Shown: positions 1,739 to 20,390 of the stretch, one piece after another
Layout of the letters: every line of letters starts with the position of its first letter
How positions within the stretch are numbered: position 1 is the stretch's first letter
Virus record (IMG/VR): IMGVR_UViG_3300045988_011306
Location: 1-23,150 of that record
DNA: 23,150 bases
DNA from: a virus
Reading direction: 5' to 3' (one strand)
Position numbers and translations under genes: made by a program
The notes under the pieces: model-generated
Seen by the model: only the letters and a program-made list of their open reading frames with translations
Databases searched by the model: none
What the model was told of the DNA's origin: nothing

Positions 1739-2340
1739 TCATCATGCACCCACTTCTGAATTACTAGTGAATGGTTCTTGTATTTCTTTCCACTCGTTTC
1801 AATGTACTCATCTAATATCTTTATGTGCTCATCTAATGAATCACCATATAAATCTAATAGGTGTGTGTGTTCTTTATCTGTTAATAGAACGTGTTGATAT
1901 TCTCCGTATTTGTGTTTGTGCGTACATACATTAATATTATTTTTATTTAATTCATTTTTAGTTGAATTATTATTTAATTTAATAGGGTTTAGATTTTCTA
2001 ATTTTAGATTTTCTATTTTTAGATTTTCTATTTTTAGATTTTCTAAATTCCGAGGATTGTCTATTAATGTATATTGCCAATCAACAATCAAATTACCTTC
2101 TCTAATTGGTTCACGAATTAAATATCCTTTTTCAATTAATTCTTTTAAACCTGAACGAACACTTGATATTCCATCTGTAGCTAATGCTTTAATACTATTT
2201 TCCTTAAAATCCCAATTATCAGGAAGGCTTAACATTTGGCAAAACAAGCCTTTTGCTTTATAGGATAATTCTCTATCATGGAATATCTCATTATTGACAT
2301 GAGTGTAACCACTTTGTAGTCTTTTCTTTAGTTCTGCTAT
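1735..2340 (-). CDS. Phage replisome organizer / replication initiator (winged-helix N-terminus, DnaD-like C-terminus)
   Basis: N-terminal HVNNEIFHDRELSYKAKGLFCQMLSLPDNWDF ... GLKELIEKGYL and C-terminal YGEYQHVLLTDKEHTHLLDLYG ... YIETSGKKYKNHSLVIQKWV are typical of this family. The track's GTG at 2349 sits inside the SD (GGAGGTG). ATA at 2340 lies 8 nt after GGAGG and is the proposed start. Confidence 0.7.
   Translation of the reverse strand: MAELKKRLQSGYTHVNNEIFHDRELSYKAKGLFCQMLSLPDNWDFKENSIKALATDGISSVRSGLKELIEKGYLIREPIREGNLIVDWQYTLIDNPRNLENLKIENLKIENLKLENLNPIKLNNNSTKNELNKNNINVCTHKHKYGEYQHVLLTDKEHTHLLDLYGDSLDEHIKILDEYIETSGKKYKNHSLVIQKWVHDE
1991..2050. repeat. Four tandem 15-bp direct repeats (agattttcta[a/t]tttt) inside the replisome organizer gene; candidate origin iterons
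   Basis: Units at 1991-2005, 2006-2020, 2021-2035 and 2036-2050 encode ENLKIENLKIENLKLENL. An extremely AT-rich stretch (1929..1990) lies next to them. Confidence 0.8.
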
Positions 2341-2341
2341 T

Positions 2342-2728
2342 CTAATCACCTCCTAGAATTTCTACCTCTATCCTTGGATTTTCTTTATCTGTAAATACTG
2401 AATGATTCACTTGATTAATGTATTTTCTTGAATCATCTTCTAAAATTCCTGTTCTAACTAATGAATCTTGAATGAATTTGGTTGCAAATGTTATGTTGTC
2501 AATATCTCTTTTGTTATTCGGTTCATACCAATTGATATTTAATTTAATTGGATAGTTCTTAACTTCGTAAACTTCGCCAAAATTTACTGCCTGTAAGATA
2601 TAAGCCATAACTAATCGTTCATTCTTTTTCTTCATTTCCGCTCCTTTGTATCGGTTCGTTCTACAAGCATTAATATATTCATTCAATCCATCTAGTTTTC
2701 CTTTAATTACAAATTTTATTTCTATCAC
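2342..2728 (-). CDS. rusA: RusA-family Holliday junction resolvase
   Basis: KRDIDNITFATKFIQDSLVRTGILEDDSRKYI matches the RusA D-x-D-N...K...D-x-L...DD signature. GTG start overlaps the upstream stop (GTGA). Confidence 0.8.
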   Translation of the reverse strand: MIEIKFVIKGKLDGLNEYINACRTNRYKGAEMKKKNERLVMAYILQAVNFGEVYEVKNYPIKLNINWYEPNNKRDIDNITFATKFIQDSLVRTGILEDDSRKYINQVNHSVFTDKENPRIEVEILGGD

Positions 2729-3255
2729 CCCTTGATTCCTTTATCTAAATAATATTGAGTACTGATTCCTAATTGTTCTGCATAATCTAATATGCAATCA
2801 ATTAATACTCCCATTTGTTTTGTGTCCATTTGTGAGCTACCTAGAAACAATCTGCAATTCACAAATTCATTACCATTTTCTCTAACCTCAGTACCTAATA
2901 TTTGCACTGCTCTAACTCCATGCGCTTGAGCCAACGAATCAACACCATCTTTCAAAACTGAAACATATGTATATAACGCTTTTGCCATTCTAAGAAATTC
3001 GCAATACATATCCCATGTATCGTTATAACTAGCATTTTCGTTATCGCATATTTCCTTGATTAAAGCCCACATAAGCCGATTCTGTTCATTAGTACGTAAA
3101 TGTTTAACAGAATCTATAATCACGCTATATGGCCCTTTTTCGAGCTTCTGAGCGTATGATTCGTATATTGGCTCAGTCAATTCAAATGTTATTTCTAGGT
3201 TTCCATCTTCATTTCTTGATTTACGGATGAAATTACCTATTAATTTTGTTTTCAA
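2725..3255 (-). CDS. NinB/Orf-like recombination mediator
   Basis: RTNEQNRLMWALIKEI parallels lambda NinB RSLDQNRKLWACLGDV. GSSQMDTKQMGVLIDCILDYAEQLGI parallels GQSTSRMRVGEFAELLELIQAFG. TTG start overlaps the upstream TGA. Confidence 0.55.
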   Translation of the reverse strand: MKTKLIGNFIRKSRNEDGNLEITFELTEPIYESYAQKLEKGPYSVIIDSVKHLRTNEQNRLMWALIKEICDNENASYNDTWDMYCEFLRMAKALYTYVSVLKDGVDSLAQAHGVRAVQILGTEVRENGNEFVNCRLFLGSSQMDTKQMGVLIDCILDYAEQLGISTQYYLDKGIKG

Positions 3256-3492: not shown

Positions 3493-3750
3493 TTATAGAT
3501 AATTCTTATGAAATATCTTCATAAACTCTTTTCTTGTGTGTTCTTCTTCAAATGCCTGTTGACATTCCTTCTTAAGTTTCATGTCTAATTTGTGATTGAA
3601 ATGTACTCCTTCACTGCTCATATTGTGATGTCTAGCACATAATCTTACATAACATCCATGCTCAATTGATTTCTTTCTGTTTGCAGTGCCGAAATATATT
3701 TCATGTGTGTGTAGATTTAAAGTTGAACCACATACATAGCATTTAGACAT
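3493..3750 (-). CDS. Small zinc-ribbon / HNH-like protein
   Basis: CYVCGS ... HTHEIYFG ... CYVRLCARHHN gives CxxC plus a C..HH metal-binding pattern. It sits in the recombination module. Confidence 0.4.
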   Translation of the reverse strand: MSKCYVCGSTLNLHTHEIYFGTANRKKSIEHGCYVRLCARHHNMSSEGVHFNHKLDMKLKKECQQAFEEEHTRKEFMKIFHKNYL

Positions 3751-3782
3751 ATCTTTTTGTAATATTGATTTATCTCTTTTCT

Positions 3783-4430
3783 TTATACCTGTTCCCTCGC
3801 AATCTTTTCTTTGTACCCTTTAATTAATGCTCCATAAGCTTTAATTGTTGATTGCAATTGTTGCTCATTTAATTTCTGTAAATCTTGTGATTCGCATTGT
3901 GAATGTTTAAGAATCCAACCTGCATATTGTTCTCTAAAGTCAATTCCTAATTCATTCATTTCAGTTTGCATTGCTACAAATTTCTTAACTGTTTCTTCTT
4001 TTGGTTCTAGTTCCTTTTTCTTATCTTCTTCCGGTAAATCTTCGCCTGCATAAATGTATAAACCTAATCCATGACGAGCTATTGCTTTTGTTAAACTTCT
4101 TTGAATTGCTTTATTGACATCAAATGAAGTCAACTTATCAAGAGTGATTGATTTGTTCTTGTAATCCATTACAGGTAATTCTTCAATGTGTTCTAATCCC
4201 TCAATAATTACACTTGTCTTAACCCAAGCAGTGTGACCGTCTGTGAAGTAATTAATAGGCCCATAATCTGATTCACGCTCATAAATTTTATATTGAGCAT
4301 TTGGATACTTCTTTTTTACTTCTCCCCATGCCCATGCCCACGATAAGTAGCTAAGATTATTCTTTTTTTCAACTTTGTCATTTACATTGATTTCATTCAG
4401 TGTTTGAAATACTGATTTCTTTTCTTCCAT
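3783..4430 (-). CDS. sak: Sak-type (Rad52-like) single-strand annealing protein
   Basis: VEKKNNLSYLSWAWAWGEVKKKYP ... AIQRSLTKAIARHGLGLYIYAGEDLP is the hallmark of the Sak/DUF1071 SSAP family. ATG has a strong SD. Confidence 0.75.
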   Translation of the reverse strand: MEEKKSVFQTLNEINVNDKVEKKNNLSYLSWAWAWGEVKKKYPNAQYKIYERESDYGPINYFTDGHTAWVKTSVIIEGLEHIEELPVMDYKNKSITLDKLTSFDVNKAIQRSLTKAIARHGLGLYIYAGEDLPEEDKKKELEPKEETVKKFVAMQTEMNELGIDFREQYAGWILKHSQCESQDLQKLNEQQLQSTIKAYGALIKGYKEKIAREQV

Positions 4431-6895: not shown

Positions 6896-7111
6896 TTATT
6901 TCTTTGCCTTTCCAAACAACCCTCTATCTTCTAAGCTATTAATCAATATTAATTGTTTCAGTTCTTCAACTGTTCTGTCATCTCCACATAAACTTTTATC
7001 TTCATACAATAAGCGACTGTTTTCGTTTTTAGCATCCATTGCTTCTTTGTCACTCATCTTTTGTACTGCATAATAGAAATCTTTTACTTGCATTAATTTT
7101 TCGTTTGTCAT
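6896..7111 (-). CDS. Hypothetical small protein (71 aa)
   Basis: ATG at 7111 (MTNEKLMQV) lies 9 nt after AGGAGG. Confidence 0.5.
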   Translation of the reverse strand: MTNEKLMQVKDFYYAVQKMSDKEAMDAKNENSRLLYEDKSLCGDDRTVEELKQLILINSLEDRGLFGKAKK

Positions 7112-7148
7112 TTCTTGTTTCCTCCTGTGTACTTCTTTGTACATACAT

Positions 7149-7177
7149 AGTATAACATACACGTATATATATGTAAA
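7149..7177 (-). promoter_or_regulatory. SigA-type early promoter: TTTACA, 17-nt spacer, TATACT with a TG extension
   Basis: -35 at 7177..7172 and -10 at 7154..7149. It shares the 20-nt block ATACGTGTATGTTATACTAT with the promoter at 6393..6421. Confidence 0.7.
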
Positions 7178-7192
7178 GCACTTTTTTTTAGG

Positions 7193-7226
7193 AAAATAAA
7201 AAGTAGCCCTGCATAAACAGAGCTAC
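7193..7226 (-). terminator. Intrinsic terminator (second of two after the lysis genes)
   Basis: Minus strand reads GTAGCTCTG-TTTATG-CAGGGCTAC (9 bp with one G-U pair), followed by TTTTTATTTT. Confidence 0.65.
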
Positions 7227-7280
7227 CACATATTAACATCAACATGAATATTAACCTAAAAACCATATATATTATAGCAC

Positions 7281-7313
7281 AAAAAAATAGCCTATGAACT
7301 TAATCATAGGCTA
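7281..7313 (-). terminator. Intrinsic terminator, potentially bidirectional
   Basis: Perfect 10-bp stem TAGCCTATGA / TCATAGGCTA with a 6-nt loop, flanked by an A7 run on one side and an A/T run on the other. Confidence 0.75.
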
Positions 7314-7340
7314 AAATATAAAAAAAATAGTTGAAGGATT

Positions 7341-7424
7341 TGTGTCATAATTTCAGATTTTGACACTTTTTATGAAATTTAATTGTAATTTTTGCACAAA
7401 ATGTGCAATTTTGACACTTTTATG
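7341..7424. repeat. Non-coding repeat cluster between the endolysin stop and its terminator
   Basis: Direct repeats attttgacac-ttttt-atg (7357..7374) and attttgacac-tttt-atg (7408..7424). There is also an inverted GTGTCA copy (7343..7348) and the palindrome TTGCACA-AAA-TGTGCAA (7392..7408). Confidence 0.8.
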
Positions 7425-7440
7425 TGCCATTTCTCTTATT

Positions 7441-8205
7441 TTAAGCTACTTCAATTAATGGGCCACATTTTACCCATACCCCACCAATTTTAGCAAGGTT
7501 CTTTTGTGCGTTGACTTCATCAACACGAATTCTAGTTACGTAGACAACTGCATTTGTTGTATGTAGCACATTGTCATTGTATCCATCAGAATAGCGAACT
7601 TTATCCACTAGACGAATTGGAAACCAACCACCTAATTGTGCAAGGTATGCACATAAATCACCATTGATTTGTTTAAGCCCTTCATCTCCAATTTTCATTT
7701 GGACTGATGTCACATAGCTTCCTGCGTGCAAGATTTGGTCAATCGCTTCTGCGTGTTGTGGAATACTTGGCTTTGTAGCTCCTGTATTTGCAAAACATTT
7801 AGGTCTAAATGCAGTATCGAATGTAGCAAAATAAGGTAATTTAATTAAATTGAATGCTCCGCCTTTTCCACCTTGATTTTGGCCCAAGAACCATCCTTGC
7901 TTTCCGTCAATATCAGAATCAAAGATTGCGATATGACTGTATGGCGTAACTCCTGCTACTTCTTTAAAGACTGCGATATCTCCTGCTTGCATAATTGAGA
8001 CCTCATTGCAGTAGCTTAAAATTCCATTTGTTTTTCGATTGTTCCAAATATCCTTAACGTAGCCACTTGTCGTACAATGGATAGCTTTATAGCCTAAATC
8101 AATCATGTACTTTGCGAATCCGTCCCAACACTGCGCACCATAGTATCCGTCAATGTCGAATGCTTTGCCTAATACGGCTTTTTTAAAACTTTGATAATCT
8201 ATCAA
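7441..8205 (-). CDS. Endolysin: N-terminal CHAP domain plus a C-terminal SH3-like wall-binding domain
   Basis: GYYGAQCWDGF (catalytic Cys) and PYSHIAIF (His) are CHAP signatures. The start is TTG at 8205 (4 nt after GGAGG) or ATA at 8202 (7 nt after). Confidence 0.8.
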   Translation of the reverse strand: MIDYQSFKKAVLGKAFDIDGYYGAQCWDGFAKYMIDLGYKAIHCTTSGYVKDIWNNRKTNGILSYCNEVSIMQAGDIAVFKEVAGVTPYSHIAIFDSDIDGKQGWFLGQNQGGKGGAFNLIKLPYFATFDTAFRPKCFANTGATKPSIPQHAEAIDQILHAGSYVTSVQMKIGDEGLKQINGDLCAYLAQLGGWFPIRLVDKVRYSDGYNDNVLHTTNAVVYVTRIRVDEVNAQKNLAKIGGVWVKCGPLIEVA

Positions 8206-8225
8206 GAATCCTCCTTTCTGTACCA

Positions 8226-10544: not shown

Positions 10545-10570
10545 AAAAAAAAGAGGTATTTCAACCTCTT
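10545..10570 (-). terminator. Intrinsic terminator inside the lysis cassette, overlapping the stop codon of the sigma-r4-like gene
   Basis: Minus strand reads AAGAGGT-TGAAAT-ACCTCTT, running into a T8 tract. Confidence 0.7.
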
Positions 10571-10835
10571 AATTCTCATCTAGATACTTTTCTTTTTCAC
10601 TGCTTTTTCTTGGTGGTAGGATTGTGCTAAACTTCTCTACATTATCATACTTGCTCTTTAATCTTTTGATGATTCTATTAACGCTAGAAACACTCATGTT
10701 CAATTTGTCGGCTTGTTCTCTAACTGTCCATCCATATATTCTAGTTCTTAGAATCATTTCTTCCTCTTTTGTTAATAAAGCTAGGTTAATGAATTCTTCA
10801 AGAATAATCTTATTCCAAGGTACTTGATTCGTCAT
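10569..10835 (-). CDS. Small sigma-70 region-4-like / LuxR-type HTH regulator (island gene A)
   Basis: LTKEEEMILRTRIYGWTVREQADKLNMSVSSVNRIIKRLKSKY fits the region 4.2 HTH pattern. Its ATG lies 26 nt inside the 3' end of the holin gene. Confidence 0.55.
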   Translation of the reverse strand: MTNQVPWNKIILEEFINLALLTKEEEMILRTRIYGWTVREQADKLNMSVSSVNRIIKRLKSKYDNVEKFSTILPPRKSSEKEKYLDEN

Positions 10836-11316
10836 TGTCTTGCTCTTCGTTAATGAGTTTATCTGCTACTTCTAATCCTTTAGTTAATACGTTAGGCACG
10901 TTATATCCACATTGTACAAGGTTCTCAATAATGCTACGCACTTCATTAATGCATAAAGAAGCTAACACAAACCAACCCAATAATGTTGTTACATGGAAAT
11001 CAACTCCTAACATTTCTCCAATTTCTACCAAGAATGCACTGAATGTGAACGCAACTACAATCATAATCCAATACCCTAGCTTTTTTAGGACCCCAATCCA
11101 ACCTTTATTGCTATTGATTTTGTGATTAATAGCCGACTTCATGCACCCTGTAATATAATCCACTACATTCATAAATAAGAAGAATGCGAATAAATACCAA
11201 TGCTCACCTAATACGTATGTTAATACGGCTACGGCTACGCCACCCATTGCATTAATCTTATCTAGAAAATACATACTTCTTGTTATTTGTTTAAATCCTC
11301 CATTGTTATTTTCTAT
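10810..11316 (-). CDS. Holin, phage_holin_4_1 / TcdE-type family
   Basis: VVDYITGCMKSAINHKINSNKGWIGVLKKLGY and CINEVRSIIENLVQCGYNVPNVL match the TcdE-like D..TG...A...S...G..KK and NE..SI.EN...G..VP signatures. Three hydrophobic helices. The proposed start is ATA at 11316, 8 nt after AAGGAG. The track's GTG at 11325 is part of the SD. Confidence 0.8.
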   Translation of the reverse strand: MENNNGGFKQITRSMYFLDKINAMGGVAVAVLTYVLGEHWYLFAFFLFMNVVDYITGCMKSAINHKINSNKGWIGVLKKLGYWIMIVVAFTFSAFLVEIGEMLGVDFHVTTLLGWFVLASLCINEVRSIIENLVQCGYNVPNVLTKGLEVADKLINEEQDNDESSTLE

Positions 11317-11328
11317 TAAATTCACTCC

Positions 11329-12342
11329 TTACATGATTTTTAAGTTATCAACCTCTAATTCTAGAGTTCTGTATCCACTCTTAATGACTTCAAATATATT
11401 TCTAATTCTTGCCGTCATTACTAATCCAATATCTGCTACTATAACATCCACTTTATCGCCTAAATCAAAGTCAACCTTGTATTCGTATGAATCCGTATTC
11501 AATCCGAAATTCACATTTTCCTGAATTTGACAATCTGCTAGTTTTTCAATTCCTTTCTGAATGAGTACCTTCTTATATTCATCAAGCGTCATATTGTCGC
11601 CCATACGCTCAGAACGTGCGTCTACGAATAACTTTTTGATTCTTTCGTTCTTATCTATTCTAGCGTCATATTCTACGTAAATACGCTCTTCTGATTGTCC
11701 TTCACCACAAATGATAGCATAGTTCTTATATTTGCTTGAATCAATCATAACGTCAGGTTCTTCAATATTTCCAAACTCTGTTGAAAAGGTAACAAAGTTG
11801 TTTCCATCTGTATTATTCTGAGTTAAATCACGACCACGATACAAAACAAATGTGAATGTACTTGACACATAGTCATATTCTATACGGAACGACAATTCTA
11901 ACGGATACAATAATTCATAAAGTTTTGTATCAAGGTTTGCTCCTGTTTCTTGGAAGTCTACTCTATCGGTAATGGATTCATCATATCTATACCCCATTTC
12001 CCATGAGCAATACTTGTCTAATAGCTTTTTTACAACATCGACAATTTTTCCACTGCTTGAGAATGTAGGATAAATACAATCATCTGCTAGAATCTTTTCA
12101 AAGAAAGAGCCTTTTAGCAACATTTGTTTCGTGTTGTTTGAAACCGAATAATGTGGTATTTCTACGATTCCTAACTCTTTATCCTCAGTTGAATAAATAT
12201 ATTTTATGTCGCTTGAATACTGCCCTATATCAATATAAATTTCAAAGTCTCCTGTTTCATAATATCGCCTATTCCACTGCACGTTATAAGGTGCTAGATG
12301 TGTAACGATATTGAAATCTTTATCTAATCCAAAGTAAGACAT
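11329..12342 (-). CDS. Siphovirus Gp37-like tail (baseplate/Tal-position) protein
   Basis: It lies directly after Dit. The N-terminus NIVTHLAPYNVQWNRRYYETGDFEIYI ... ELGIVE resembles the ReqiPepy6 Gp37-like family (from memory). Confidence 0.55.
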   Translation of the reverse strand: MSYFGLDKDFNIVTHLAPYNVQWNRRYYETGDFEIYIDIGQYSSDIKYIYSTEDKELGIVEIPHYSVSNNTKQMLLKGSFFEKILADDCIYPTFSSSGKIVDVVKKLLDKYCSWEMGYRYDESITDRVDFQETGANLDTKLYELLYPLELSFRIEYDYVSSTFTFVLYRGRDLTQNNTDGNNFVTFSTEFGNIEEPDVMIDSSKYKNYAIICGEGQSEERIYVEYDARIDKNERIKKLFVDARSERMGDNMTLDEYKKVLIQKGIEKLADCQIQENVNFGLNTDSYEYKVDFDLGDKVDVIVADIGLVMTARIRNIFEVIKSGYRTLELEVDNLKIM

Positions 12343-12343
12343 A

Positions 12344-13216
12344 CTATAAACCTAAATACCTTTCATTGTAATAAACCGTACAAGCTAGGTTCGTATCTCC
12401 ATTGTCTGCCGTATACCCTATGATATTTTCTCCTAGTTGAATCGTCATATCGTTGAATGATGATGTTCTGTCAACCTTTCCGATACAATTTACACCATTC
12501 TTTTTAATCGAAATAGGCTCAGAAACTAAATCAATTTCTAACACATCACCATTGTGTAGCGTATCTAATACACGAATATATTTATCTTTGTTGAATAATT
12601 CCGGATTTGTAACATCTCCGAACGCTTCAATAACGGCTCTACAGTATGTTTCTGTATCACCTTGATTATCGATATAGATTTCTCTAGCAAATGTAAATGT
12701 TCCAAAGTTCACGCCTGTTTCAGGTATTTCAAAGTTGAACGCTAAACCTTCTCCAATTTCTGCGATATTCCTTGCGAAATCATCATATGAAAGCAATAAA
12801 GGTTGTGTGCATAGAATCGTAAAGTTAAGCTCTAAATCCTTGTAGATGTTAGCAGTAGGCAAGCTATACGCATATAAACGACCTCTGCAATATTTCTTTT
12901 CTCCCATGTACTCAACTATCACATCAAATATATGAGAATATTGGAAGAAGCGTCGTAGCTTCTCCCTTTCTTCTCTTTTTTCTTCTAGCGAGCCTTTAAA
13001 GGTAGCTTTCACGCTTCTTTCTTTCGTTGGAATACGTGAGCCGATTAATCTAGCACCATTTCCGAATGCGTTGTCTTGAGCCGTATATGAAGGTGCTACA
13101 TAATCAAATCCATCTAATCCACTACTTGAAGGAATCCTCCATCTTTTTTGGTTGTCGATTTCAAATTCTTTGCCATCATCCCTACGGACAATAACTCTTA
13201 CTTTATTGATATCTAT
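12344..13216 (-). CDS. Distal tail protein (Dit, phage tail family)
   Basis: It lies directly after the tape measure gene. The frame stays open for 67 codons upstream of the track's GTG with no canonical start. ATA at 13216 lies 9 nt after GGAGG and overlaps the TMP stop as ATAG. Confidence 0.7.
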   Translation of the reverse strand: MDINKVRVIVRRDDGKEFEIDNQKRWRIPSSSGLDGFDYVAPSYTAQDNAFGNGARLIGSRIPTKERSVKATFKGSLEEKREEREKLRRFFQYSHIFDVIVEYMGEKKYCRGRLYAYSLPTANIYKDLELNFTILCTQPLLLSYDDFARNIAEIGEGLAFNFEIPETGVNFGTFTFAREIYIDNQGDTETYCRAVIEAFGDVTNPELFNKDKYIRVLDTLHNGDVLEIDLVSEPISIKKNGVNCIGKVDRTSSFNDMTIQLGENIIGYTADNGDTNLACTVYYNERYLGL

Positions 13217-15792
13217 TGAATTACACCTCCATATCCATATCTTGCTTGCATACGTAACATTCTAGCGATTTCATCAGGACTTTGAGCTTTATTATAGAAG
13301 TTGATAGTCTGTCCGTTGTTATTCGTTGTTACGCTTGGTATGATTTGAGCCATATCTTTAGCAACGGCACGAATCCAAGCTTTATTTCTTTCTAATGGAA
13401 CGACTGCTTCTGCTCCGTTACCTTCTAGCAAACCGATTTGGCCACGTTTCAATACACCACCACGTTCTAGCTTTGGAATCTTTCCAATGTGTACACCGGG
13501 AATCTTATTGATGATTCCGATTGCGCCGTTAATACCTCCTATAACGCCATTTACAAAGCCTTTTACGCTTCCAACTAACGATTGTACTGCTCCTTCAATT
13601 CCACCAAATACACCACCTACAAAGTCTTTTAAACCGTTCCATGAGTTTTGTATTCCTTGTAGAACGTTTGAAATCTTTTCGCCTACTTTGCCCATGATAT
13701 CTTTAACTTTAGACCAAATACCGTTGAATACATCCGAAACGGTATCCTTAACATTATTGAAATATTTATTGATATTATCTATCACACCTTGAACCTTGTC
13801 TCTTACCTTGTTCATAGCGTCTTGTATCTTACTCCAAATGTTTCCTACTACATCCGAAACTGTCTTAAATACATTGCTTACGAATTCAATAATCGCAGTA
13901 ACTACTTCGCTAATCTTACTCCAAATATTTGTTGCTACTGTTAGGATAACTGACCAAATATTCGCTACGATTGTAGCTACGACTTGAACAATAGGCATGA
14001 TAAATCCTAGTATTGTTGAAATTGCAGTACCTACAATAGAAATTACTGTGCTAATAAATGATATAATACCACTTATAACACTTCCGACAACTTGAAGGAT
14101 AGATGTTATTACAGGAATCATTCCAACTACCGTTTGAATAATCATCTTAATAATTGCTAGAATCGGTGGGCCTACAACGCTAAGAATCTTTTGAGCTTGA
14201 TTCACAATATTTTGAATCACTTCAATAATCTTGCTTAATATATCCTTTGCAATAGGCTCAAGAGCAGTTTTCATCTGCTCAATCGCACCTTTTACCTTGT
14301 CAAAAGCAGGAGCTAACACATCTGAAACTTGGCTAACGATATTGGTTATACCGCTTGTATCAATACTTCCGAATACATTTGAAATGACATCACCAACTTT
14401 AGCGAATCCTTGTTGAATGCCTTGAATTGCTACTGTAATAAATCCAATGATACCGGAAAGAATAGGAATAATTGCTTCGCCTATTGGAGTAAATGAATCA
14501 AGAAATGTACGGCCTAATTCACTTAAAGCGTTCTTTAGACCACCATTTGCAATTTCTTTGACTTTATCCATTGCTCCTTCTACATCTTTATATTTATTTC
14601 CTACTGTCGTTAAGGACTGAATGAATCCTGCGTTGAAATCTTCTCCCATTGTACCGAAAGCCGTTGCCGATTTATTCAACTTTTCTTGCTCGTTTGTAGT
14701 GTTTGAAATATCTTCTACAATCGCATTCACAACATCTTTCTGAGTTGCTCTTCCCTCTTGCCAAGCTTTAAAGACATCTTGCGTCTTGGAACTGAAACTA
14801 TCTAAAGCTCCTTCAATCGTTCCATCAACTAACCTTGTGGTAACTTCGTTGATTGCGTCGTTTACTTTATCAAGGTTGTAAGCTCCACCATCTAAGCCAT
14901 TCTGCATTAATTGGAAATATTCATCTGCAGAATATCCTGCTTGTGCGAATTTACCGGAGTATTCTGAAATGTTGTCGCCTAATTCATCTGATTTATTCAA
15001 ACCGTTCTGAGCACCTGTTGCCATTAGGTCAAAAGCTTCTTGAGAAGTAATGCCGAACTGCTTCATCAACTGTTGAGCACCTCTTAATGTTTCGTTCTCG
15101 TCCATGCCGAATGCGTCTCTTAATGTCAATAAATCCTCGGTCACGTTCTTTAGGTCAACATCACTTATGCCTTGCATTTGTTGCTTGACACGGCCCATCA
15201 TGTCGGCTACATCTGCAATATCTTCACCGAAATTGTTTGACCAAACTTCACGAGCAATGTCTTTAAACTTGCTCATTTCTTTACTTGAAGCACCTGTTTG
15301 AGCTTGGAAATTAGCCATAGCGTCATCTAGCTCTGTAGCTTGATTTACACCTGTCTTAATCGCTAGTGCCATACCACCGATAGCTCCTGCTACGGCAGTA
15401 ACGCCTACAACACCCCCTATGCCTAATCCTGTTAGTGTATCAGTGATTGTAGTTGCTTCCGGACTAATATTCTGAATCTTATCTAATAAGCCATCAAATC
15501 CACCTTGAATTGAATCTAAGGCACTGCTACCAACCTTTTTAAATACATCAAACTTTGAACCTGTTTCTTGTGTTTCTGCTTGTGTATTCTTTTGCTCTTC
15601 GTTTAAATCCTTAAGTTTATCTTTAATCTTTGGTGGTGCTTTTGAACCGTCAGAGCCTAATTTGTCGATTGCTTTTGAAGTATCTTTAATTGCATTTGTA
15701 GCTTCACTTGATACGACCTTTACAGATTTAATACCATTCTCTAGACCGCTTGTATCTAGCTTTGTCTCAAACTTTAAAATTCCGTCTGATAT
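13213..15792 (-). CDS. Tail tape measure protein (about 859 aa)
   Basis: Long helical protein with hydrophobic central repeats and repeated ...NIWSKI / GIWSKV units. The frame is open for 140 codons upstream of the first ATG (SDGILKFETKLDTSGLENGIK...). ATA at 15792 lies 11 nt after GGAGG. Confidence 0.85.
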   Translation of the reverse strand: MSDGILKFETKLDTSGLENGIKSVKVVSSEATNAIKDTSKAIDKLGSDGSKAPPKIKDKLKDLNEEQKNTQAETQETGSKFDVFKKVGSSALDSIQGGFDGLLDKIQNISPEATTITDTLTGLGIGGVVGVTAVAGAIGGMALAIKTGVNQATELDDAMANFQAQTGASSKEMSKFKDIAREVWSNNFGEDIADVADMMGRVKQQMQGISDVDLKNVTEDLLTLRDAFGMDENETLRGAQQLMKQFGITSQEAFDLMATGAQNGLNKSDELGDNISEYSGKFAQAGYSADEYFQLMQNGLDGGAYNLDKVNDAINEVTTRLVDGTIEGALDSFSSKTQDVFKAWQEGRATQKDVVNAIVEDISNTTNEQEKLNKSATAFGTMGEDFNAGFIQSLTTVGNKYKDVEGAMDKVKEIANGGLKNALSELGRTFLDSFTPIGEAIIPILSGIIGFITVAIQGIQQGFAKVGDVISNVFGSIDTSGITNIVSQVSDVLAPAFDKVKGAIEQMKTALEPIAKDILSKIIEVIQNIVNQAQKILSVVGPPILAIIKMIIQTVVGMIPVITSILQVVGSVISGIISFISTVISIVGTAISTILGFIMPIVQVVATIVANIWSVILTVATNIWSKISEVVTAIIEFVSNVFKTVSDVVGNIWSKIQDAMNKVRDKVQGVIDNINKYFNNVKDTVSDVFNGIWSKVKDIMGKVGEKISNVLQGIQNSWNGLKDFVGGVFGGIEGAVQSLVGSVKGFVNGVIGGINGAIGIINKIPGVHIGKIPKLERGGVLKRGQIGLLEGNGAEAVVPLERNKAWIRAVAKDMAQIIPSVTTNNNGQTINFYNKAQSPDEIARMLRMQARYGYGGVIQ

Positions 15793-15812
15793 TCAATTTG
15801 CCACCTCCTTTT

Positions 15813-16376
15813 CTAAACATCAAAATATGAATCGAATTCATCTTTCATTTCTTGTTCCTCTATTGTTAACTCGATTGGGAAAGACCACGCTTCTTTTGCT
15901 CTTTGATATGCTTTATCCTGTGTATCATTCTTTGAAGGCTTTTCGTAGCCTCTAACGCTCTTTGCATATCCCCATAAAGTTGTATCACCAACTATATTAT
16001 TGGCTAGTGCTAAGAACTTATGCCAATGCATATCACATTCAGTTAAATCAATGCCGTAAAGTTGCATAAACGCCGAATAAATATATTCCCCATCTTGTAC
16101 ATAATCCAATGTCTTAACGCCAGTAGAATCACTTCTAGGCGTACTAGAAGGGTTATATAGGAATCGTTCTAGCTCTTTTAAAATATGCTCATCTATAATA
16201 GGTAGCTCATCTGCAAATAGATAAGAGCAATCTATTTCATCAATGATATGATTGTTAAATCTTTCTAATTCTTCATAGAATCTTATCCACAACCGAAAAT
16301 CTGTATTTAATAAAATAGGCTCGCCATCTAGCGACTGTATGCTATTTGGCAAGCCTTTTATTCGTAAATCAATCAT
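15813..16376 (-). CDS. Gp15-like tail assembly protein (upstream of the TMP)
   Basis: Supported by position and by the N-terminus ILLNTDFRLWIRFYE. The ATG overlaps the upstream stop (ATGA). Confidence 0.55.
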   Translation of the reverse strand: MIDLRIKGLPNSIQSLDGEPILLNTDFRLWIRFYEELERFNNHIIDEIDCSYLFADELPIIDEHILKELERFLYNPSSTPRSDSTGVKTLDYVQDGEYIYSAFMQLYGIDLTECDMHWHKFLALANNIVGDTTLWGYAKSVRGYEKPSKNDTQDKAYQRAKEAWSFPIELTIEEQEMKDEFDSYFDV

Positions 16377-16735
16377 TTCTTCTCCGAAATGCTAGAAACA
16401 GTCTTGCTTGCGTCAAGAAATTGTTTCATTCCATTTGTACCGAATGTTGCTTTTAATTTCTTTTCCAACTGTTCAACCGTTTTCCTTGAATATTCATCAT
16501 CAATCAAATTGACAATATACAATACTTCCATCAAATCAACTTGTTCAAAGTCTGCACTTCCTAACATGGATTCAATTTGTTCATCTGTTAATACTGTTTT
16601 CAGATACTCGAATTTAGCTCGATATGCTTCTTCATGCGTAGAATGAAATGCGTTACAAGCGTCCTCCGCTTTTAATACTTCTAGTGTTTTAGGTGGAATG
16701 TCATACTGTTTCCCTTCATACGTGATTCTATTCAT
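16373..16735 (-). CDS. Tail assembly chaperone (gpG position)
   Basis: Small acidic protein between the major tail and Gp15-like/TMP genes. ATG has an AAGAGG SD. Confidence 0.55.
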   Translation of the reverse strand: MNRITYEGKQYDIPPKTLEVLKAEDACNAFHSTHEEAYRAKFEYLKTVLTDEQIESMLGSADFEQVDLMEVLYIVNLIDDEYSRKTVEQLEKKLKATFGTNGMKQFLDASKTVSSISEKK

Positions 16736-16752
16736 GATTTACCTCTTCTTTC

Positions 16753-17259
16753 TTATGCTCCTAATGTACCTTCTTCAAATGTTACTGTTCCATTAGATAC
16801 CTTTGCAGTGCCGACACGAATATCGCTTGCAAAGTTAATGTTGAAGTTGATTTTTGAATCGACACCGCTTAACGTGTCAAAGATTAATTTAGCGTCAACT
16901 TCCCACGCTTTATATCCTGTTGTTTTATCTCCGTCAAACATGAATACAAGTAAGGCTTTTGTATTTACTTCTTCGTTGTTTGGTACGGATTTCATCATTT
17001 GTTCGTAAATATATTCAAAGTCATCTTCGCCCTTAATCATTGTTAAATCTTGCGAAATCTGAGGTGAATAACTCTTTAATGATTCGGTTGGGTTCTTATC
17101 TGCGATAAAGTCATACGTTTCAGTTTCACTGTTAAAAGAAATATCTAAAGTTGTTGATTTCTTAACTCGTTTATAACCTTCTCCCATTTGTAAGAACAAG
17201 CCAATCATATACTTCTTGACTGTCTGTCCTGTAGTTACTTCAGTTCCTGTAGTTGCTAT
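16753..17259 (-). CDS. Major tail (tube) protein
   Basis: Supported by position and size. ATA at 17259 lies 8 nt after AAAGGAG and overlaps the upstream TAA (TAATA), adding ATTGTEVTTGQTVKKY. The internal ATG at 17208 has no SD. Confidence 0.65.
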   Translation of the reverse strand: MATTGTEVTTGQTVKKYMIGLFLQMGEGYKRVKKSTTLDISFNSETETYDFIADKNPTESLKSYSPQISQDLTMIKGEDDFEYIYEQMMKSVPNNEEVNTKALLVFMFDGDKTTGYKAWEVDAKLIFDTLSGVDSKINFNINFASDIRVGTAKVSNGTVTFEEGTLGA

Positions 17260-17678
17260 TAATTAAGCTCCTTTCTGTATTTGATTTGAATAGTCAATGC
17301 ATATACTGCTTGATTATCCTCATTTGTGTATAGATATAAACCACTTGAAACGGAAACATCATCACAATATCTGTTTCCGTCTAGTTGTGGTAATTCTCCG
17401 CTTAAATTCTTTTCGTCAATCCAATTTTCTAATTCTTCTAGAAAAACATTGTTATCTTGTCTTTCTGATTCAATTTGTGTATTCCTACGAGCTAGAAACG
17501 TGTAGTATTCCGTACGCATTTGAGAGCCGTCAATGTATGTATCTACAATTGCGTTAGGTTCTTTATACAACGCATAAGATATAGCTTGTTGCGCTAAAAC
17601 ATCCGTTTCAATACGTTCATCTATCTGTATATTTCCATAGCCATATAGCCATTGAATCAACGCTTTTGATACTGTCAT
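17259..17678 (-). CDS. Head-tail joining / tail terminator-type protein
   Basis: Position between the gp10-like and major tail genes. ATG overlaps the upstream TGA. Confidence 0.5.
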   Translation of the reverse strand: MTVSKALIQWLYGYGNIQIDERIETDVLAQQAISYALYKEPNAIVDTYIDGSQMRTEYYTFLARRNTQIESERQDNNVFLEELENWIDEKNLSGELPQLDGNRYCDDVSVSSGLYLYTNEDNQAVYALTIQIKYRKELN

Positions 17679-18037
17679 TCTCCGTCTCCTATCATTTGTT
17701 GTGCTTTCTTCAAGATTGCTTCAGCTCCACCATTTCGCATAGCTTTATCGAACCAATGGTCTACTTTACCACCAACGAATTCAACTTCCTCTTTGTTGTA
17801 ATACCAACGTCTTGCGTATGGTGCACTTGGTCCACCTTGCTTTACTAATCCACTACCAATTTGTGTCATTCTGTATGCAGACCTTGCTAAAGGACCGTTC
17901 CTATACGGAACATAAGGTGTCATAAGGTCAATAACTTCGGTATCAATCATTTTTTGTACACGTCCACGTTCTTCAAGTCCTCTTGATTGTTTAATTTGGG
18001 GGATTGATTCAACATCAAGTTTGACTTTCATTACTAT
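17675..18037 (-). CDS. HK97 gp10-like tail completion protein
   Basis: PYVPYRNGPLARSA ... APYARRWYY is gp10-family-like. The start is ATA at 18037 (10 nt after GGAGG, ATAG overlap) or ATG at 18031 (16 nt after). Confidence 0.55.
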   Translation of the reverse strand: MVMKVKLDVESIPQIKQSRGLEERGRVQKMIDTEVIDLMTPYVPYRNGPLARSAYRMTQIGSGLVKQGGPSAPYARRWYYNKEEVEFVGGKVDHWFDKAMRNGGAEAILKKAQQMIGDGE

Positions 18038-18465
18038 TGACCGACGACCTCCCAATGCTTCAACATATCGACATTTGTACAATCTGTTACGCTTTGAATT
18101 GTTGTCCATTTATATTTCTTTTTAGCTTCGTTTATTGCCTTGATTGTATACAAATCTTCTTTGACCTCTCCAAAGAATACGAAATCTGTCTTATCTGTGT
18201 TTAATGTGAAGTGCTTTTTCTTTTCATCATTTGAAAGCTTTGCATATGCGTAAGGTTCAACATATCCATCACGATATAGAATGGTAATATTTGTGGATGT
18301 GGCTATGCTCATAATATTACCGTTTGCAGTTCTAACCGTTGATTGTCTCCACATACATTTATCAAGGATAGAAGCTTGAAACTTATCTTCTCTTGTCAAT
18401 GTGTCATAGTAGTGATTTACAAGTGTGATTGAATCTTCAAAGAATCCTATCATAATGCAATCCAT
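18034..18465 (-). CDS. Head closure / minor capsid-type head-tail protein
   Basis: Position. ATG at 18465 or 18453; the longer track start overlaps the upstream gene. Confidence 0.5.
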   Translation of the reverse strand: MDCIMIGFFEDSITLVNHYYDTLTREDKFQASILDKCMWRQSTVRTANGNIMSIATSTNITILYRDGYVEPYAYAKLSNDEKKKHFTLNTDKTDFVFFGEVKEDLYTIKAINEAKKKYKWTTIQSVTDCTNVDMLKHWEVVGQ

Positions 18466-18797
18466 CTTTCTTTCATTAAATCTGTATCTCCTAACCAAAA
18501 GGCTATGATATCCTCAATTGTGTTCCTTTTGTCTGAGTGTGTAGTGTTTATAAAGCTTTTAGAATATCCACCATTTGAAATACTTGATACACCATCAATC
18601 GAATCTTGAAAGATTACATTGTTTAATACATCACAGATACAATCTTTTAAAGTATCTTCGTTTTGTTCATTAATAGAATCAACATTCACATACTTCAATA
18701 CCATTGCTTCCGCTTTGTAAGAATACTGATTGAATTGATTTTCATCGAATTTAGGAAAATGGGAATTGTAATATTCCCAATCTAAAATGTTGTTCAT
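18450..18797 (-). CDS. Head-tail connector-type protein
   Basis: First gene after the capsid gene. ATG has an AAAGGGGG SD. Confidence 0.45.
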   Translation of the reverse strand: MNNILDWEYYNSHFPKFDENQFNQYSYKAEAMVLKYVNVDSINEQNEDTLKDCICDVLNNVIFQDSIDGVSSISNGGYSKSFINTTHSDKRNTIEDIIAFWLGDTDLMKERWIAL

Positions 18798-18817
18798 TTT
18801 ACAACCCCCTTTTTATG

Positions 18818-18922
18818 CTATTTTTCTTTTTGAGGTTTAGCTTCCTCTTTTTTTGTTTGAGGTTTACCTTTTTTAGTCTTTTCAACTTTAGAAGGATAAC
18901 CCCATCCGATTTCTACTGCCAT
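18818..18922 (-). CDS. Possible 34-aa Lys-rich peptide (MAVEIGWGYPSKVEKTKKGKPQTKKEEAKPQKEK)
   Basis: ATG overlaps the capsid stop as TAATG. It fills an otherwise non-coding gap. The SD is weak. Confidence 0.25.
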   Translation of the reverse strand: MAVEIGWGYPSKVEKTKKGKPQTKKEEAKPQKEK

Positions 18923-19791
18923 TACTTCGCACTAGCAGATAAGTAGATACCTGCTACCTTATTTTGGTATACATCAACAATTCCATACTTACGATATTTT
19001 AGTACATCTGAATCTGATTCAATGTTATTGCTTGCAGGAATTACATCTGAAACGGTGTGTTTATCCCATTTCATAACTGCAGGTTTATGAACAATTAAGA
19101 AATTGATTACGTGGCCATCTGTTGCTTTTTGGTATCCGCCGTCTAATTCTGTTTCTTTTCCGCTCAACAATTTAATCTTTGTATAGAAACGTGTTGCAGG
19201 TACAGGAACAACTTTCGCAAAACCTTGTAAGGCTTCACGAGATTTGTTTGTATCCAAAGCCTTAACGCTATTTAACAACGTAGGTGTTGAATACAAGATA
19301 CGTTGTTCGGAAGGAACTTCGTCCTCATCCATTTTAGTGGTTGCTTTTAATAACGCACTCAAGAAAGCTTCTGCACTTTCATAGTCTTCTGAAACTTTTG
19401 AGATTCCTGTTGTGCCGGCAATCTTAGCAAATGTGTAAGCGTCTGCTTCCGGTGCTACCTTAGTACGCATTAATTCTGCTCCTGCCATACCGAATGCAAT
19501 ATTCATTGATTCTGCATTGTCTTGTGTATCAACTGCAATCTTTGTCCCTCTGTCATAGTCAAATGTAGCAGTTTTCCATTCTAATTTAACTGAATTTGAT
19601 GTGTAACCACCGTTTCTATCATAGTCTCCTAAACCTTTAACAGAAATCTGTGGATAGATGATTTCTTTTGCGTTCGCTCCTGCTCTAACCATTGTAGCAT
19701 CTACGTTTAAATCACCTGTAACTGAAGCTAATTTGTATACCTCATCTAGATTTGAGACATACGATTTAGCTAATGCAATTTGATTTGGTAT
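18922..19791 (-). CDS. Major capsid protein (289 aa with the proposed ATA start)
   Basis: It follows the scaffold gene. GANAKEIIYPQISVKGLGDYDRNGGY is typical of this capsid family. The frame is open for 33 codons upstream of the first ATG. ATA at 19791 lies 9 nt after GGAGG. Confidence 0.8.
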   Translation of the reverse strand: MPNQIALAKSYVSNLDEVYKLASVTGDLNVDATMVRAGANAKEIIYPQISVKGLGDYDRNGGYTSNSVKLEWKTATFDYDRGTKIAVDTQDNAESMNIAFGMAGAELMRTKVAPEADAYTFAKIAGTTGISKVSEDYESAEAFLSALLKATTKMDEDEVPSEQRILYSTPTLLNSVKALDTNKSREALQGFAKVVPVPATRFYTKIKLLSGKETELDGGYQKATDGHVINFLIVHKPAVMKWDKHTVSDVIPASNNIESDSDVLKYRKYGIVDVYQNKVAGIYLSASAK

Positions 19792-19805
19792 TAATTAAAT
19801 CCTCC

Positions 19806-20390
19806 TTATTTCTTTTCTGTAGCTAAACCCATCGCTTGTCGTAGCAATAAATCTTCGGCATTTGGGTTTGCTCCTTTCCCACTGCTTCCAACGATGTTTC
19901 CTGTTGCAGTAGGTTCTTTCTGCTCTTCTTCAAACAAGATTGGCTTATTTTCTTTCAATTTTTTGAAAGCTTTGTCAATATCATTTGTTTGGTCTTTTGA
20001 ATTTAGTAAATCATCATAGTTGATTTGTGATTTTGCTAAATCGAAATCTTTACATCCGTATTCTTTAGCTTTAGCACTTAATACAGAATCAAGATTCATT
20101 TTGCTAATCTGAGTTTCGTAGTTTGTCTTTTGCGTGTCAATATCATTCGTCAATGTATTGATTTTATTTTTCAATTCTTCTACATCAACTCCATCATAGC
20201 TTTTCTTGAAATCATCAAACTTTGTTTGAATTTCCTTTGCGTTGTTCTCTGCTAAAGATAGCTTTTCTTTTTGCTTGTCGAACTCTGCAATCGTCTTATA
20301 GTTCTCATTCACTAGCTTTGTGATTGAGCCTTCTTGCTCTTTGGTTAATTCAATGTTTGATTCTTTTAAAATTTCAATAATGTTTTTCAT
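19806..20390 (-). CDS. Scaffolding protein (GP20-like)
   Basis: Acidic coiled-coil protein immediately upstream of the capsid gene. The N-terminus IIEILKESNIELTKEQ is typical. Confidence 0.7.
   Translation of the reverse strand: MKNIIEILKESNIELTKEQEGSITKLVNENYKTIAEFDKQKEKLSLAENNAKEIQTKFDDFKKSYDGVDVEELKNKINTLTNDIDTQKTNYETQISKMNLDSVLSAKAKEYGCKDFDLAKSQINYDDLLNSKDQTNDIDKAFKKLKENKPILFEEEQKEPTATGNIVGSSGKGANPNAEDLLLRQAMGLATEKK

Follow-up and report, generated by a model that had tools for sequence, protein, structure and literature searches.

The window analysed here is a stretch of 23,150 bp of viral DNA (IMG/VR record IMGVR_UViG_3300045988_011306, positions 1 to 23,150) with about 33% G+C and with all of its long open reading frames (ORFs) on the minus strand. 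It comprises the late region of a siphophage together with a portion of its early region. Comparison with related genomes indicates that ATA is almost certainly the true start codon of a fixed set of genes in the lineage of this phage, among them the genes of the major capsid, tape measure and distal tail proteins. It is probable that the phage also supplies an initiator tRNA for these genuine ATA starts, since a tRNA gene on the same contig combines an initiator-type body with the anticodon UAU, which is cognate to AUA.

Genes starting with ATA

Every stop-free frame was searched for start-like codons behind a duplex with the anti-Shine-Dalgarno sequence, and all sites were also read directly. 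The first-pass annotation had pointed to five late genes (capsid, tube, tape measure, Dit and gp10-like) in which a Shine-Dalgarno (SD) sequence is followed by ATA, and every detail of these sites holds on direct reading and translation. ATA is not limited to structural genes as had been thought, however. The scan of the rest of the window adds the holin, a RusA-like gene and the gene of a helix-turn-helix (HTH) protein, and the lysin gene of relatives uses ATA too. On the same contig, just beyond the window, an SD sequence followed by ATA is also found on the genes of the portal and of a 268-aa protein and probably on terS. An ATA start is the best explanation for 11 of the 53 genes of the phage. 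The genes of the window concerned are as follows.

18922..19791, minus strand: major capsid gene, 289 codons; ATA 19791..19789; SD GGAGG 19805..19801, spacer 9 nt
17675..18037, minus strand: gp10-like head-tail gene (Minor_capsid_2-like); ATA 18037..18035; SD GGGAGG, spacer 10 nt; ATAG overlap with the upstream stop
16753..17259, minus strand: putative major tail (tube) gene, 168 codons; ATA 17259..17257; SD AAAGGAG, spacer 8 nt; TAATA overlap
13213..15792, minus strand: tape measure protein (TMP) gene, 859 codons; ATA 15792..15790; SD GGAGGTG 15808..15802; PF10145, E=1e-22
12344..13216, minus strand: Dit (distal tail) gene, 290 codons; ATA 13216..13214; SD GGAGGTG 13230..13224; PF22768, E=3e-11
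10810..11316, minus strand: holin gene (Phage_holin_4_1); ATA 11316..11314; SD AAGGAG 11330..11325, spacer 8 nt; PF05105, E=1e-32
7441..8205, minus strand: CHAP-domain lysin gene (Pfam CHAP); TTG 8205 followed by ATA 8202; SD AAAGGAGG 8217..8210
3493..3786, minus strand: candidate small gene; ATA 3786..3784 in an ATAA overlap with the Sak stop; GAGGG upstream; alternative ATG 3750 without SD
2342..2719, minus strand: RusA-like gene; ATA 2719..2717; SD AAGGGGTG 2733..2726; PF05866
1735..2340, minus strand: HTH_36-domain gene; ATA 2340..2338; SD GGAGGTG 2353..2347; in-frame GTG 2349 within the SD

The frame of the capsid gene follows closely on a TAA stop (19808..19806) and its first ATG, GTG or TTG is found 33 codons downstream of the ATA, at 19692; the start is the sole ATA codon of the gene. 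The tube ATA shares one base with the upstream TAA and is separated from the first canonical codon by 17 codons. For the TMP, the ATA abuts an in-frame TGA on its 5' side and the first canonical codon is 140 codons downstream, while the Dit ATA lies in an ATAG overlap with the TMP stop and no canonical codon follows for 67 codons, until GTG 13012. The 268-aa protein has its ATA in an ATAG overlap with the upstream stop as well. In the holin gene the single earlier canonical codon, GTG 11325, falls within the SD sequence. The gp10-like gene of the window has an ATG 6 nt 3' of its ATA; its product matches PF11114 (E=1e-5) slightly under the curated cutoff. The function of the tube protein is putative and comes from gene order alone, as this protein has no Pfam match. 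Internal canonical codons of the ATA-start genes are not preceded by SD sequences. The scaffold, minor capsid, terL, Tal and chaperone genes start with ATG.

Genes of the phage are terminated by TGA, TAG and TAA, which agrees with the earlier statement that TGA is a stop and that no Mollicutes-type code is used. Initiation at a quadruplet AUAG was considered and rejected, the long frames being in phase with the ATA triplet.

Some sites become clearer from relatives. The TTG 8205 of the lysin gene is TTA or TTT in relatives and the adjoining ATA 8202 is kept in eight of eight, so that the lysin is an ATA-start gene in the clade and ambiguous in the window. GTG 2728 of the RusA-like gene in the window is not kept in relatives, and the orthologue of the HTH gene in contig 058288 also starts with ATA. 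For the candidate small gene at 3493..3786, ATA is kept in 9/9 and ATG 3750 in 20/20 relatives.

Conservation of ATA in related phages

With the capsid as query, 80 loci were retrieved from IMG/VR. Thirty-four of these, with 90-93% capsid identity, are referred to here as the clade, and the other 46 have identities of 66% or less. The capsid start codon is ATA in all 34 clade loci, and the surrounding positions differ among them (second codon CCA or GCA, residue 4 Q or E, spacer 8 or 9 nt). Outside the clade, the N-terminal extension has counterparts in homologous capsids, with ATG at the homologous codon in 65 of 65 sequences (46 viral and 19 from bacterial genomes). In a tblastn comparison with annotated phages the match of the capsid to annotated major head proteins begins at residue 1, and the 33-codon extension is therefore coding.

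Other genes of the set behave alike. ATA is the start codon of the TMP in 33/33 relatives, of Dit in 30/30, of the gp10-like gene in 35/35, of the portal and the 268-aa protein in 32/32 each, of RusA in 11/11 and of the HTH protein in 7/7, in addition to the 34/34 of the capsid; it is replaced by ATG in one relative for the tube (ATA in 33/34) and in three for the holin (25/28). In about 270 observations all changes at a start ATA were to ATG and none to ATT, ATC or GTA. This pattern indicates that the start ATAs are held by selection. Genes starting with ATG (scaffold, minor capsid, chaperone and Tal) remain ATG in relatives. Swaps between the two codons are rare: a window gene with ATG 9810 has ATA in L190, a member of a more distant subclade, and an ATA-start gene of another member has ATG in L190. 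Each gene thus seems to be assigned to one of two start codons. The view that the ATAs are real initiation codons is borne out by homologues that align from residue 1 and have ATG exactly there, and by the exchange of ATA with ATG alone at 79-91% DNA identity.

It could be argued that the genes begin at the first internal ATG, GTG or TTG and that the upstream stretches with SD and ATA are untranslated leaders. Gene callers in public assemblies do annotate such shortened versions (capsid 256 aa, TMP 719 aa, Dit 187-222 aa). However, the capsid "leader" is homologous from residue 1 to the N-termini of dozens of phage capsids, and proteins shortened by 140 residues in the case of the TMP and by 67 in the case of Dit would be unusual. 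The internal canonical codons, which have no SD, also differ in position among relatives, while the position of the ATA is fixed. In L190, with 79% identity, the first canonical codon of the TMP has moved to codon 20 and the ATA is retained, and the ATG downstream of the gp10-like ATA is ATC, ATA or ATT in several relatives. Internal starts are therefore very improbable as a general explanation.

Another possibility is that AUA has been reassigned to methionine throughout, as in vertebrate mitochondria. The existence of an AUA-reading tRNA derived from a methionine tRNA would fit this. Yet internal ATA codons of the same genes, of which 62% are kept, exchange with ATT or ATC (20%) and GTA (7%), i.e. 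27% in all, and with ATG in only 4%, while 93% of internal ATG codons are kept. As the drift is mainly to ATT and ATC, internal ATA behaves as isoleucine. The frequency of ATA in the host is normal for an isoleucine codon, and the phage tRNA described below has initiator rather than elongator features. We give a global reassignment next to no credence.

Similarly negligible is the probability that the ATAs reflect a sequencing or assembly artefact, such as systematic G-to-A changes at starts, or a decaying defective prophage; besides prior suspicion of odd codons nothing speaks for it. The shortened capsid is also found in assemblies from at least two other samples, with DNA identical to the window at all sites, and the same ATA recurs in over 30 genomes that are related but not identical and that differ in nearby bases and in spacer length. 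The frames have no other lesions, and the changes are confined to the starts of a fixed gene set.

Chance was evaluated by counting long frames in which an SD sequence (dG <= -9) is followed by ATA and the first canonical codon comes 10 or more codons later. This signal is present in 209 of 909 long frames of the 34 clade loci, compared with 9 of 2363 frames in capsid-homologue loci outside the clade and fewer than 7 of 2197 in Sak-related loci. In both control sets SD with ATA is no commoner than SD with arbitrary codons. We also considered whether ATA starts are a trait common to other phages with related lysins and rejected it, as two unrelated phages with such lysins use ATG.

Sequence context of the ATA starts

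ATA starts differ from canonical starts in their surroundings. Their SD duplexes are stronger on average (-11.9 vs -9.2 kcal/mol, Mann-Whitney p=0.008), and G is found at +4 in 8 of 11 ATA starts vs 5 of 42 canonical starts (Fisher p=2e-4). All 11 have A at -1 (in the window at 19792, 17260, 15793, 13217, 18038, 11317, 2720 and 2341); an exception is the lysin start, with T at -1 in some relatives. The capsid and tube genes share a near-identical ribosome-binding module, GGAGGATTTAATTA-ATA (19794-19801) and GGAGCTTAATTA-ATA (17262-17269), which the module of the holin, GAATTTA-ATA, resembles.

A phage-encoded tRNA with anticodon UAU

No tRNA was detected within the window by ARAGORN. A tRNA gene is present on the window's own contig at L193:667-742, 9.2 kb past the right edge of the window; L193 and the window overlap over 10,948 bases with 0 mismatches. 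The sequence of this tRNA(UAU) is AGCAGGAUAGAGCAGUAGUAGCUCACUAGUCUUAUUAGCUAGAGGUCGAAUGGUGCAAAUCCUUCUCCUGCAACCA. It scores 48.8 bits against RF00005 (gathering score 29; L193:667-739), with 1:72 as the sole non-standard pair. ARAGORN calls the tRNA in one of the 34 clade loci, as "tRNA-Ile" with anticodon UAU. The Rfam tRNA model finds it in a member missed by ARAGORN, and BLAST finds copies wherever the region is covered.

The acceptor stem has an A1.A72 mismatch, and G2:C71, C3:G70, A72 and A73 are all present and invariant. The D stem GAGC/GCUC, which provides A11:U24 and G12:C23, is invariant in all copies, the variable loop AGGUC matches that of E. coli tRNAfMet, and the anticodon loop is CUUAUUA. 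Among tRNA(CAT) genes of 234 bacterial genomes, fMet tRNAs appear to be completely discriminated by A11-T24 and G12-C23, and tRNAIle(CAT) is excluded by C3-G70 (Silva et al. 2006, PMC1635315). Proposed determinants of formylation are the 1:72 mismatch, G2, C3, G70, C71 and A72 (PMC1635315). The same D arm was found in IMG/VR in 106 phage tRNAs outside the clade, 104 of them with anticodon CAU, and all of the closest genes in annotated phages bear the label tRNA-Met. Judged by these features, tRNA(UAU) is an initiator-derived tRNA with a new anticodon. It is not classed as tRNAfMet because it lacks the anticodon CAU and the three G:C pairs of the anticodon stem, and it is not classed as an elongator tRNAIle(UAU) because 1:72 is mismatched and A11:U24 is present.

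The tRNA is maintained as a structured molecule. In an alignment of nine phage variants with E. coli tRNAfMet the cloverleaf is 95% paired vs 37-53% in slid controls, and 10 pairs have changed on both sides. Compensatory double changes in the anticodon stem are exemplified by CUAGU/GCUAG, UCGGU/GCCGA and UUGGU/GCCAA. By RNAfold alone the tRNA does not stand out (z = -0.96). A pattern scan of IMG/VR detected tRNA(UAU) in 29 of the 34 clade contigs, and four of the five contigs lacking it are fragments of 25 kb or less. Many further copies were detected in a metagenome scan, with UAU in every copy found (more than 60 loci). In a second lineage, represented by L217 and L274 (about 60% protein identity in terL), a C1xA72 version of the tRNA is located directly upstream of a terS with SD and ATA.

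The tRNA gene is flanked by two terminator-like hairpins, and a ParB-like gene, terS and the late genes are found downstream. An extended -10-like sequence, TGAGATAAT, was noticed just 5' of the tRNA by eye, with no tool result. Upstream lies a 108-aa ORF (L193:315-641) with a weak, sub-threshold Sigma70_r4 match (E=0.004), the 3' end of which overlaps a terminator-like hairpin. This ORF may be a late-gene activator, which would put the tRNA at the head of the late region. A 435-aa protein encoded at L193:2204-3511, between the tRNA and terS, matches Radical_SAM weakly and below the threshold (E=6e-4) and is not present in all relatives; L190 has a QueT-family gene at its place. Either of these could be related to nucleoside or tRNA modification.

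Initiator-type UAU tRNAs were also seen in other contigs of low or mid GC (L329, L351, L353, L303, L251 and L244) and of 60-68% GC (L196/L215, L262/L276 and L285). These tRNAs have A11:U24 and a 1:72 mismatch or a weak U1:A72 pair, and some differ from canonical tRNAfMet essentially by C34->U, with the three G:C pairs intact. The SD-based start scan is uninformative in those of the contigs that are high in GC or poor in SD sequences. If the function proposed here is true of these tRNAs in unrelated contigs, the strategy would have arisen more than once.

Start codons and codon usage of the host

Host DNA was sampled from the host of a relative as about 30 genes on 21.7 kb and 13 kb of sequence (L191 and L192; 34% G+C). 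ATG is the start in 19 of 19 called genes of L191, and about 12 genes of L192 are canonical. If the host used ATA at the rate of the phage (0.2), the probability of finding no ATA in 20 host genes would be about 0.01, and the idea that ATA starts are as common in the host as in the phage was rejected. The first-pass annotation had suggested a special initiation capacity of either the host or the phage. The phage half of this suggestion gains a candidate in the phage-encoded initiator-type tRNA with anticodon UAU; the sampled host genes have canonical starts.

Internal use of ATA is similar in both, with 15.7 codons per 1000 (18% of isoleucine codons) in the host and 15.1 per 1000 (19%) in the phage. 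Codon supplementation is thus no reason for the phage to carry an AUA-reading tRNA, and we rejected an elongator tRNA for codon compensation because ATA use in the phage is not above that in the host.

A possible second route of initiation

At ATA codons positioned by an SD sequence, the anticodon of tRNA(UAU) would be a perfect match for the AUA in the P site of the ribosome. The phage would thereby gain a second channel of initiation for a fixed set of its genes, and with a cognate initiator tRNA supplied ATA need not be an inefficient start here. Formylation of the tRNA is probable, given that it retains the determinants in the acceptor stem and the D stem. Methionyl-tRNA synthetase (MetRS) depends on C34. 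Charging of tRNA(UAU) would for this reason probably be with isoleucine and not methionine, and the proteins would start with (f)Ile. The A-AUA-G motif of the starts could pair at five positions with the loop C32-U33-U34-A35-U36-U37-A38, i.e. A(-1):U37, AUA:UAU and G(+4).U33, and the A(-1):U37 pair would explain the unusual U37. Such a channel could tie the synthesis of virion and lysis proteins to expression of the phage tRNA, or it could keep phage initiation going when host tRNA(fMet) is attacked.

Taken together, these elements could constitute a natural orthogonal initiation system, in which tRNA(UAU), charged with isoleucine and formylated, would bring fIle to AUA through a five-base helix for the portal, capsid, tube, TMP, Dit, holin and lysin. 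Synthesis of virion and lysis proteins would then be conditional on the tRNA, either as a lock in lysogens or as a bypass of tRNAfMet cleavage or depletion. In this full form the proposal is tentative, and we regard it as well short of likely.

Several observations weigh against a phage initiator tRNA dedicated to the ATA starts. In E. coli, three G:C pairs of the anticodon stem matter for P-site binding and for passage of the IF3 checkpoint. tRNA(UAU) departs from this three-G:C criterion (29-31:39-41; relaxed R29 G30 G31/Y39 C40 Y41), and the main variant, with A29:U41, G30:C40 and U31.G39, retains G30:C40 alone. A second variant has G29:C41, G30:C40 and U31.G39, its arm being UCGGU-CUUAUUA-GCCGA vs UCGGG-CUCAUAA-CCCGA in E. 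coli tRNAfMet. Of tRNA genes classed as fMet, 15% deviate from the three G:C pairs (PMC1635315). In the main variant the T arm is bulged and its loop, UGCAAAU, is non-canonical. Base 1 is A where C is canonical, and U occupies position 37. U37 is not unique to UAU tRNAs, since it is also found, in a CUCAUUA loop, in four unrelated initiator-type tRNAs of phages with CAU (L368, L370, L386 and L415). Most E. coli isoleucyl-tRNA synthetase (IleRS) determinants outside the anticodon are missing from tRNA(UAU). One clade contig of 43 kb gave no exact match to the tRNA pattern, and for the L190 subclade we infer the presence of the tRNA. The sampled host genes come from the host of a relative rather than from the exact host of this phage, which limits the comparison of start codons. 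With regard to gating, RusA and the HTH gene have ATA starts and lie in the early or middle region, upstream of the tRNA in gene order, and a purely "late gate" reading is therefore incomplete; the ATG starts of scaffold, minor capsid, terL and Tal are choices for which gating does not account.

A simpler alternative is that the ATA starts are real but are read by host fMet-tRNA(CAU) through a third-position C.A mismatch with the help of strong SD sequences. The weak codon would then act as an attenuator or as an IF3-sensitive regulator like the AUU of infC, and the phage tRNA would be unrelated to it, e.g. an elongator, a decoy or a nuclease-resistant spare. The strength of the SD at every ATA start is in line with this, and so is the fact that tRNA(UAU) lacks the three G:C pairs that P-site selection is believed to require. 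Coupling or re-initiation could help at the overlaps with upstream stops (ATAG for Dit, gp10-like and the 268-aa protein, TAATA for the tube), and AUA is reported to be a bacterial initiation triplet, if a poor one (PMC5499595). On the other hand, AUA on the most abundant virion proteins, capsid and tube, is ill-suited to attenuation, and replacement of start ATAs is by ATG and never by ATT or ATC. With tRNA(CAU), ATT and ATC are starts of comparable weakness. Also, the tRNA body is of initiator type (1:72 mismatch and A11:U24) rather than elongator type, and the equal internal use of ATA in host and phage leaves no need for codon compensation. Finally, ATA starts and the tRNA are found together in the clade and again in the second lineage, and capsid-homologous phages outside have neither. 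We consider reading by the host initiator unlikely and favor ATA starts served by tRNA(UAU).

Phage lineage, host and neighboring genes

Pfam matches in the region include terminase, Phage_min_cap2, scaffold, a Gp15-type chaperone, tape measure, SPP1-type Dit, Sipho_Gp37, holin, CHAP lysin, Sak and RusA, with NinB scoring slightly under the curated cutoff. The lineage is a family of human-gut phages in which relatives have about 91% DNA identity to the window and the L190 subclade 79%. No match to the late region was found at the nucleotide level among 50,697 annotated phage genomes, and the lineage is without a cultured close relative. The C-terminal domain of the lysin had no match in annotated phages. 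Among GTDB species genomes no capsid exceeded 70% identity, the best full-length match being 66%.

One relative, with 79% DNA identity, is integrated in the genome of an uncultured member of the Erysipelotrichaceae. At L189 the phage adjoins bacterial genes; exact clusters of the flank proteins carried no names, but the ABC-F protein encoded there is closest, among named organisms, to those of Holdemanella, Catenisphaera and Floccifex (about 60% identity), all of this family. Faecalibaculum rodentium has full-length homologues of the lysin with about 50% identity. Judging from these matches, the host of the phage is an uncultured member of the Erysipelotrichaceae. Relatives have a lysogeny module of about 3 kb between the lysin and the early genes, with a 365-aa tyrosine integrase (PF00589) and opposite-strand ORFs (e.g. 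contig IMGVR_UViG_3300045988_058288, L007+L115). This module is absent from the window, where positions 6896-7441 have only about 330 bp in its place, and the phage may therefore have lost the ability to integrate.

Some neighboring ORFs deserve mention. Outside the window, at L001:4157-6550, the head-gene block includes the gene of a 797-aa protein that ends in a glycerophosphodiester phosphodiesterase domain (PF03009, E=2e-35), between the 268-aa protein and the 294-aa gene of the window. The protein is likely a teichoic-acid-degrading enzyme, for which this position is unusual. Within the window, a 34-codon ORF at 18818-18922 follows right after the capsid stop and is predicted by gene callers in all assemblies. 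An 88-codon ORF at 10569-10835, which has an ATG without SD and shares 26 nt with the 3' end of the holin gene, shows a weak HTH_23 match in the precomputed annotation of an identical contig.

Implications and comparison with known systems

No description of ATA-start phage genes or of natural non-CAU initiator tRNAs was found in the literature searched, the coverage of which excludes most subscription journals. Within that literature, the system proposed here would, if true, be the first natural case of a virus re-targeting initiation with its own initiator tRNA, something previously built only in the laboratory. For annotation, the findings mean that the main structural proteins of a common group of gut phages are shortened or given wrong starts by gene callers that accept only ATG, GTG and TTG, and that tRNA finders label tRNA(UAU) as tRNA-Ile or miss it. 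They also raise the questions of which initiator features are truly required, given the loss of two of the three G:C pairs and the presence of U37, of whether formyl-isoleucine starts occur in vivo, and of start-codon choice as a means to schedule or protect late gene expression. If the proposal is true, an evolution-tested pair of orthogonal initiator and start codon could prove useful as a tool for Firmicutes.

Among known systems, initiator-type phage tRNAMet(CAU) has the same D arm and acceptor features as tRNA(UAU), which differs by its UAU anticodon and by the systematic ATA starts in the same genome. The AUU start of infC, read by host tRNAfMet under IF3 control, is likewise a conserved third-position variant of AUG behind a normal SD sequence. 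In that case a single autoregulated gene of low efficiency is concerned, whereas here there are many highly expressed genes, always with ATA and never ATT or ATC, and a cognate tRNA is supplied. In animal mitochondria AUA initiation is carried out by tRNAMet with f5C34, and AUA is similarly a routine start for a tRNA able to pair with it. A single mitochondrial tRNAMet serves AUG and AUA in initiation and elongation and AUA means methionine, whereas in the phage internal AUA is isoleucine and a separate initiator-type tRNA has an encoded U34. Elongator tRNAIle(UAU), known from Mycoplasma mobile and from B. subtilis tilS-deletion suppressors, which reportedly translate AUA with a mutated tRNAIle (PMC3919564), also reads AUA with UAU. 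An elongator body has a paired 1:72 and no A11:U24, unlike the mismatch and A11:U24 of the phage tRNA.

Reading of codons is changed by phage tRNAs with altered anticodons in crAss-like and Lak phages, where stop codons are recoded with phage-encoded suppressor tRNAs and structural and lysis genes depend on the suppressor, so that late protein synthesis could be gated by a product of the phage. That recoding acts in elongation and termination at in-frame stops, whereas here initiation would be altered; the late genes are intact stop-to-stop frames with no in-frame stops, unlike those of a suppressor-tRNA code switch.

The closest parallels are engineered. In work by Schulman and RajBhandary, E. 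coli tRNAfMet with an altered anticodon (amber or isoleucine, valine and phenylalanine anticodons) reportedly initiates at the complementary non-AUG codon. More recent engineering of initiator tRNAs is reported in PMC8576571, PMC11744186 and bioRxiv 10.64898/2025.12.21.695813. Engineered orthogonal initiators resemble the phage system in having an initiator body with formylation determinants, an anticodon matched to a non-AUG start and a defined subset of genes bearing the matching codon behind a normal SD sequence. The phage tRNA differs from them in U37 and in an anticodon stem that has drifted from the three G:C pairs, and the phage system, whose function is read from sequence, is natural, conserved in a lineage and apparently used for about 20% of the genes.

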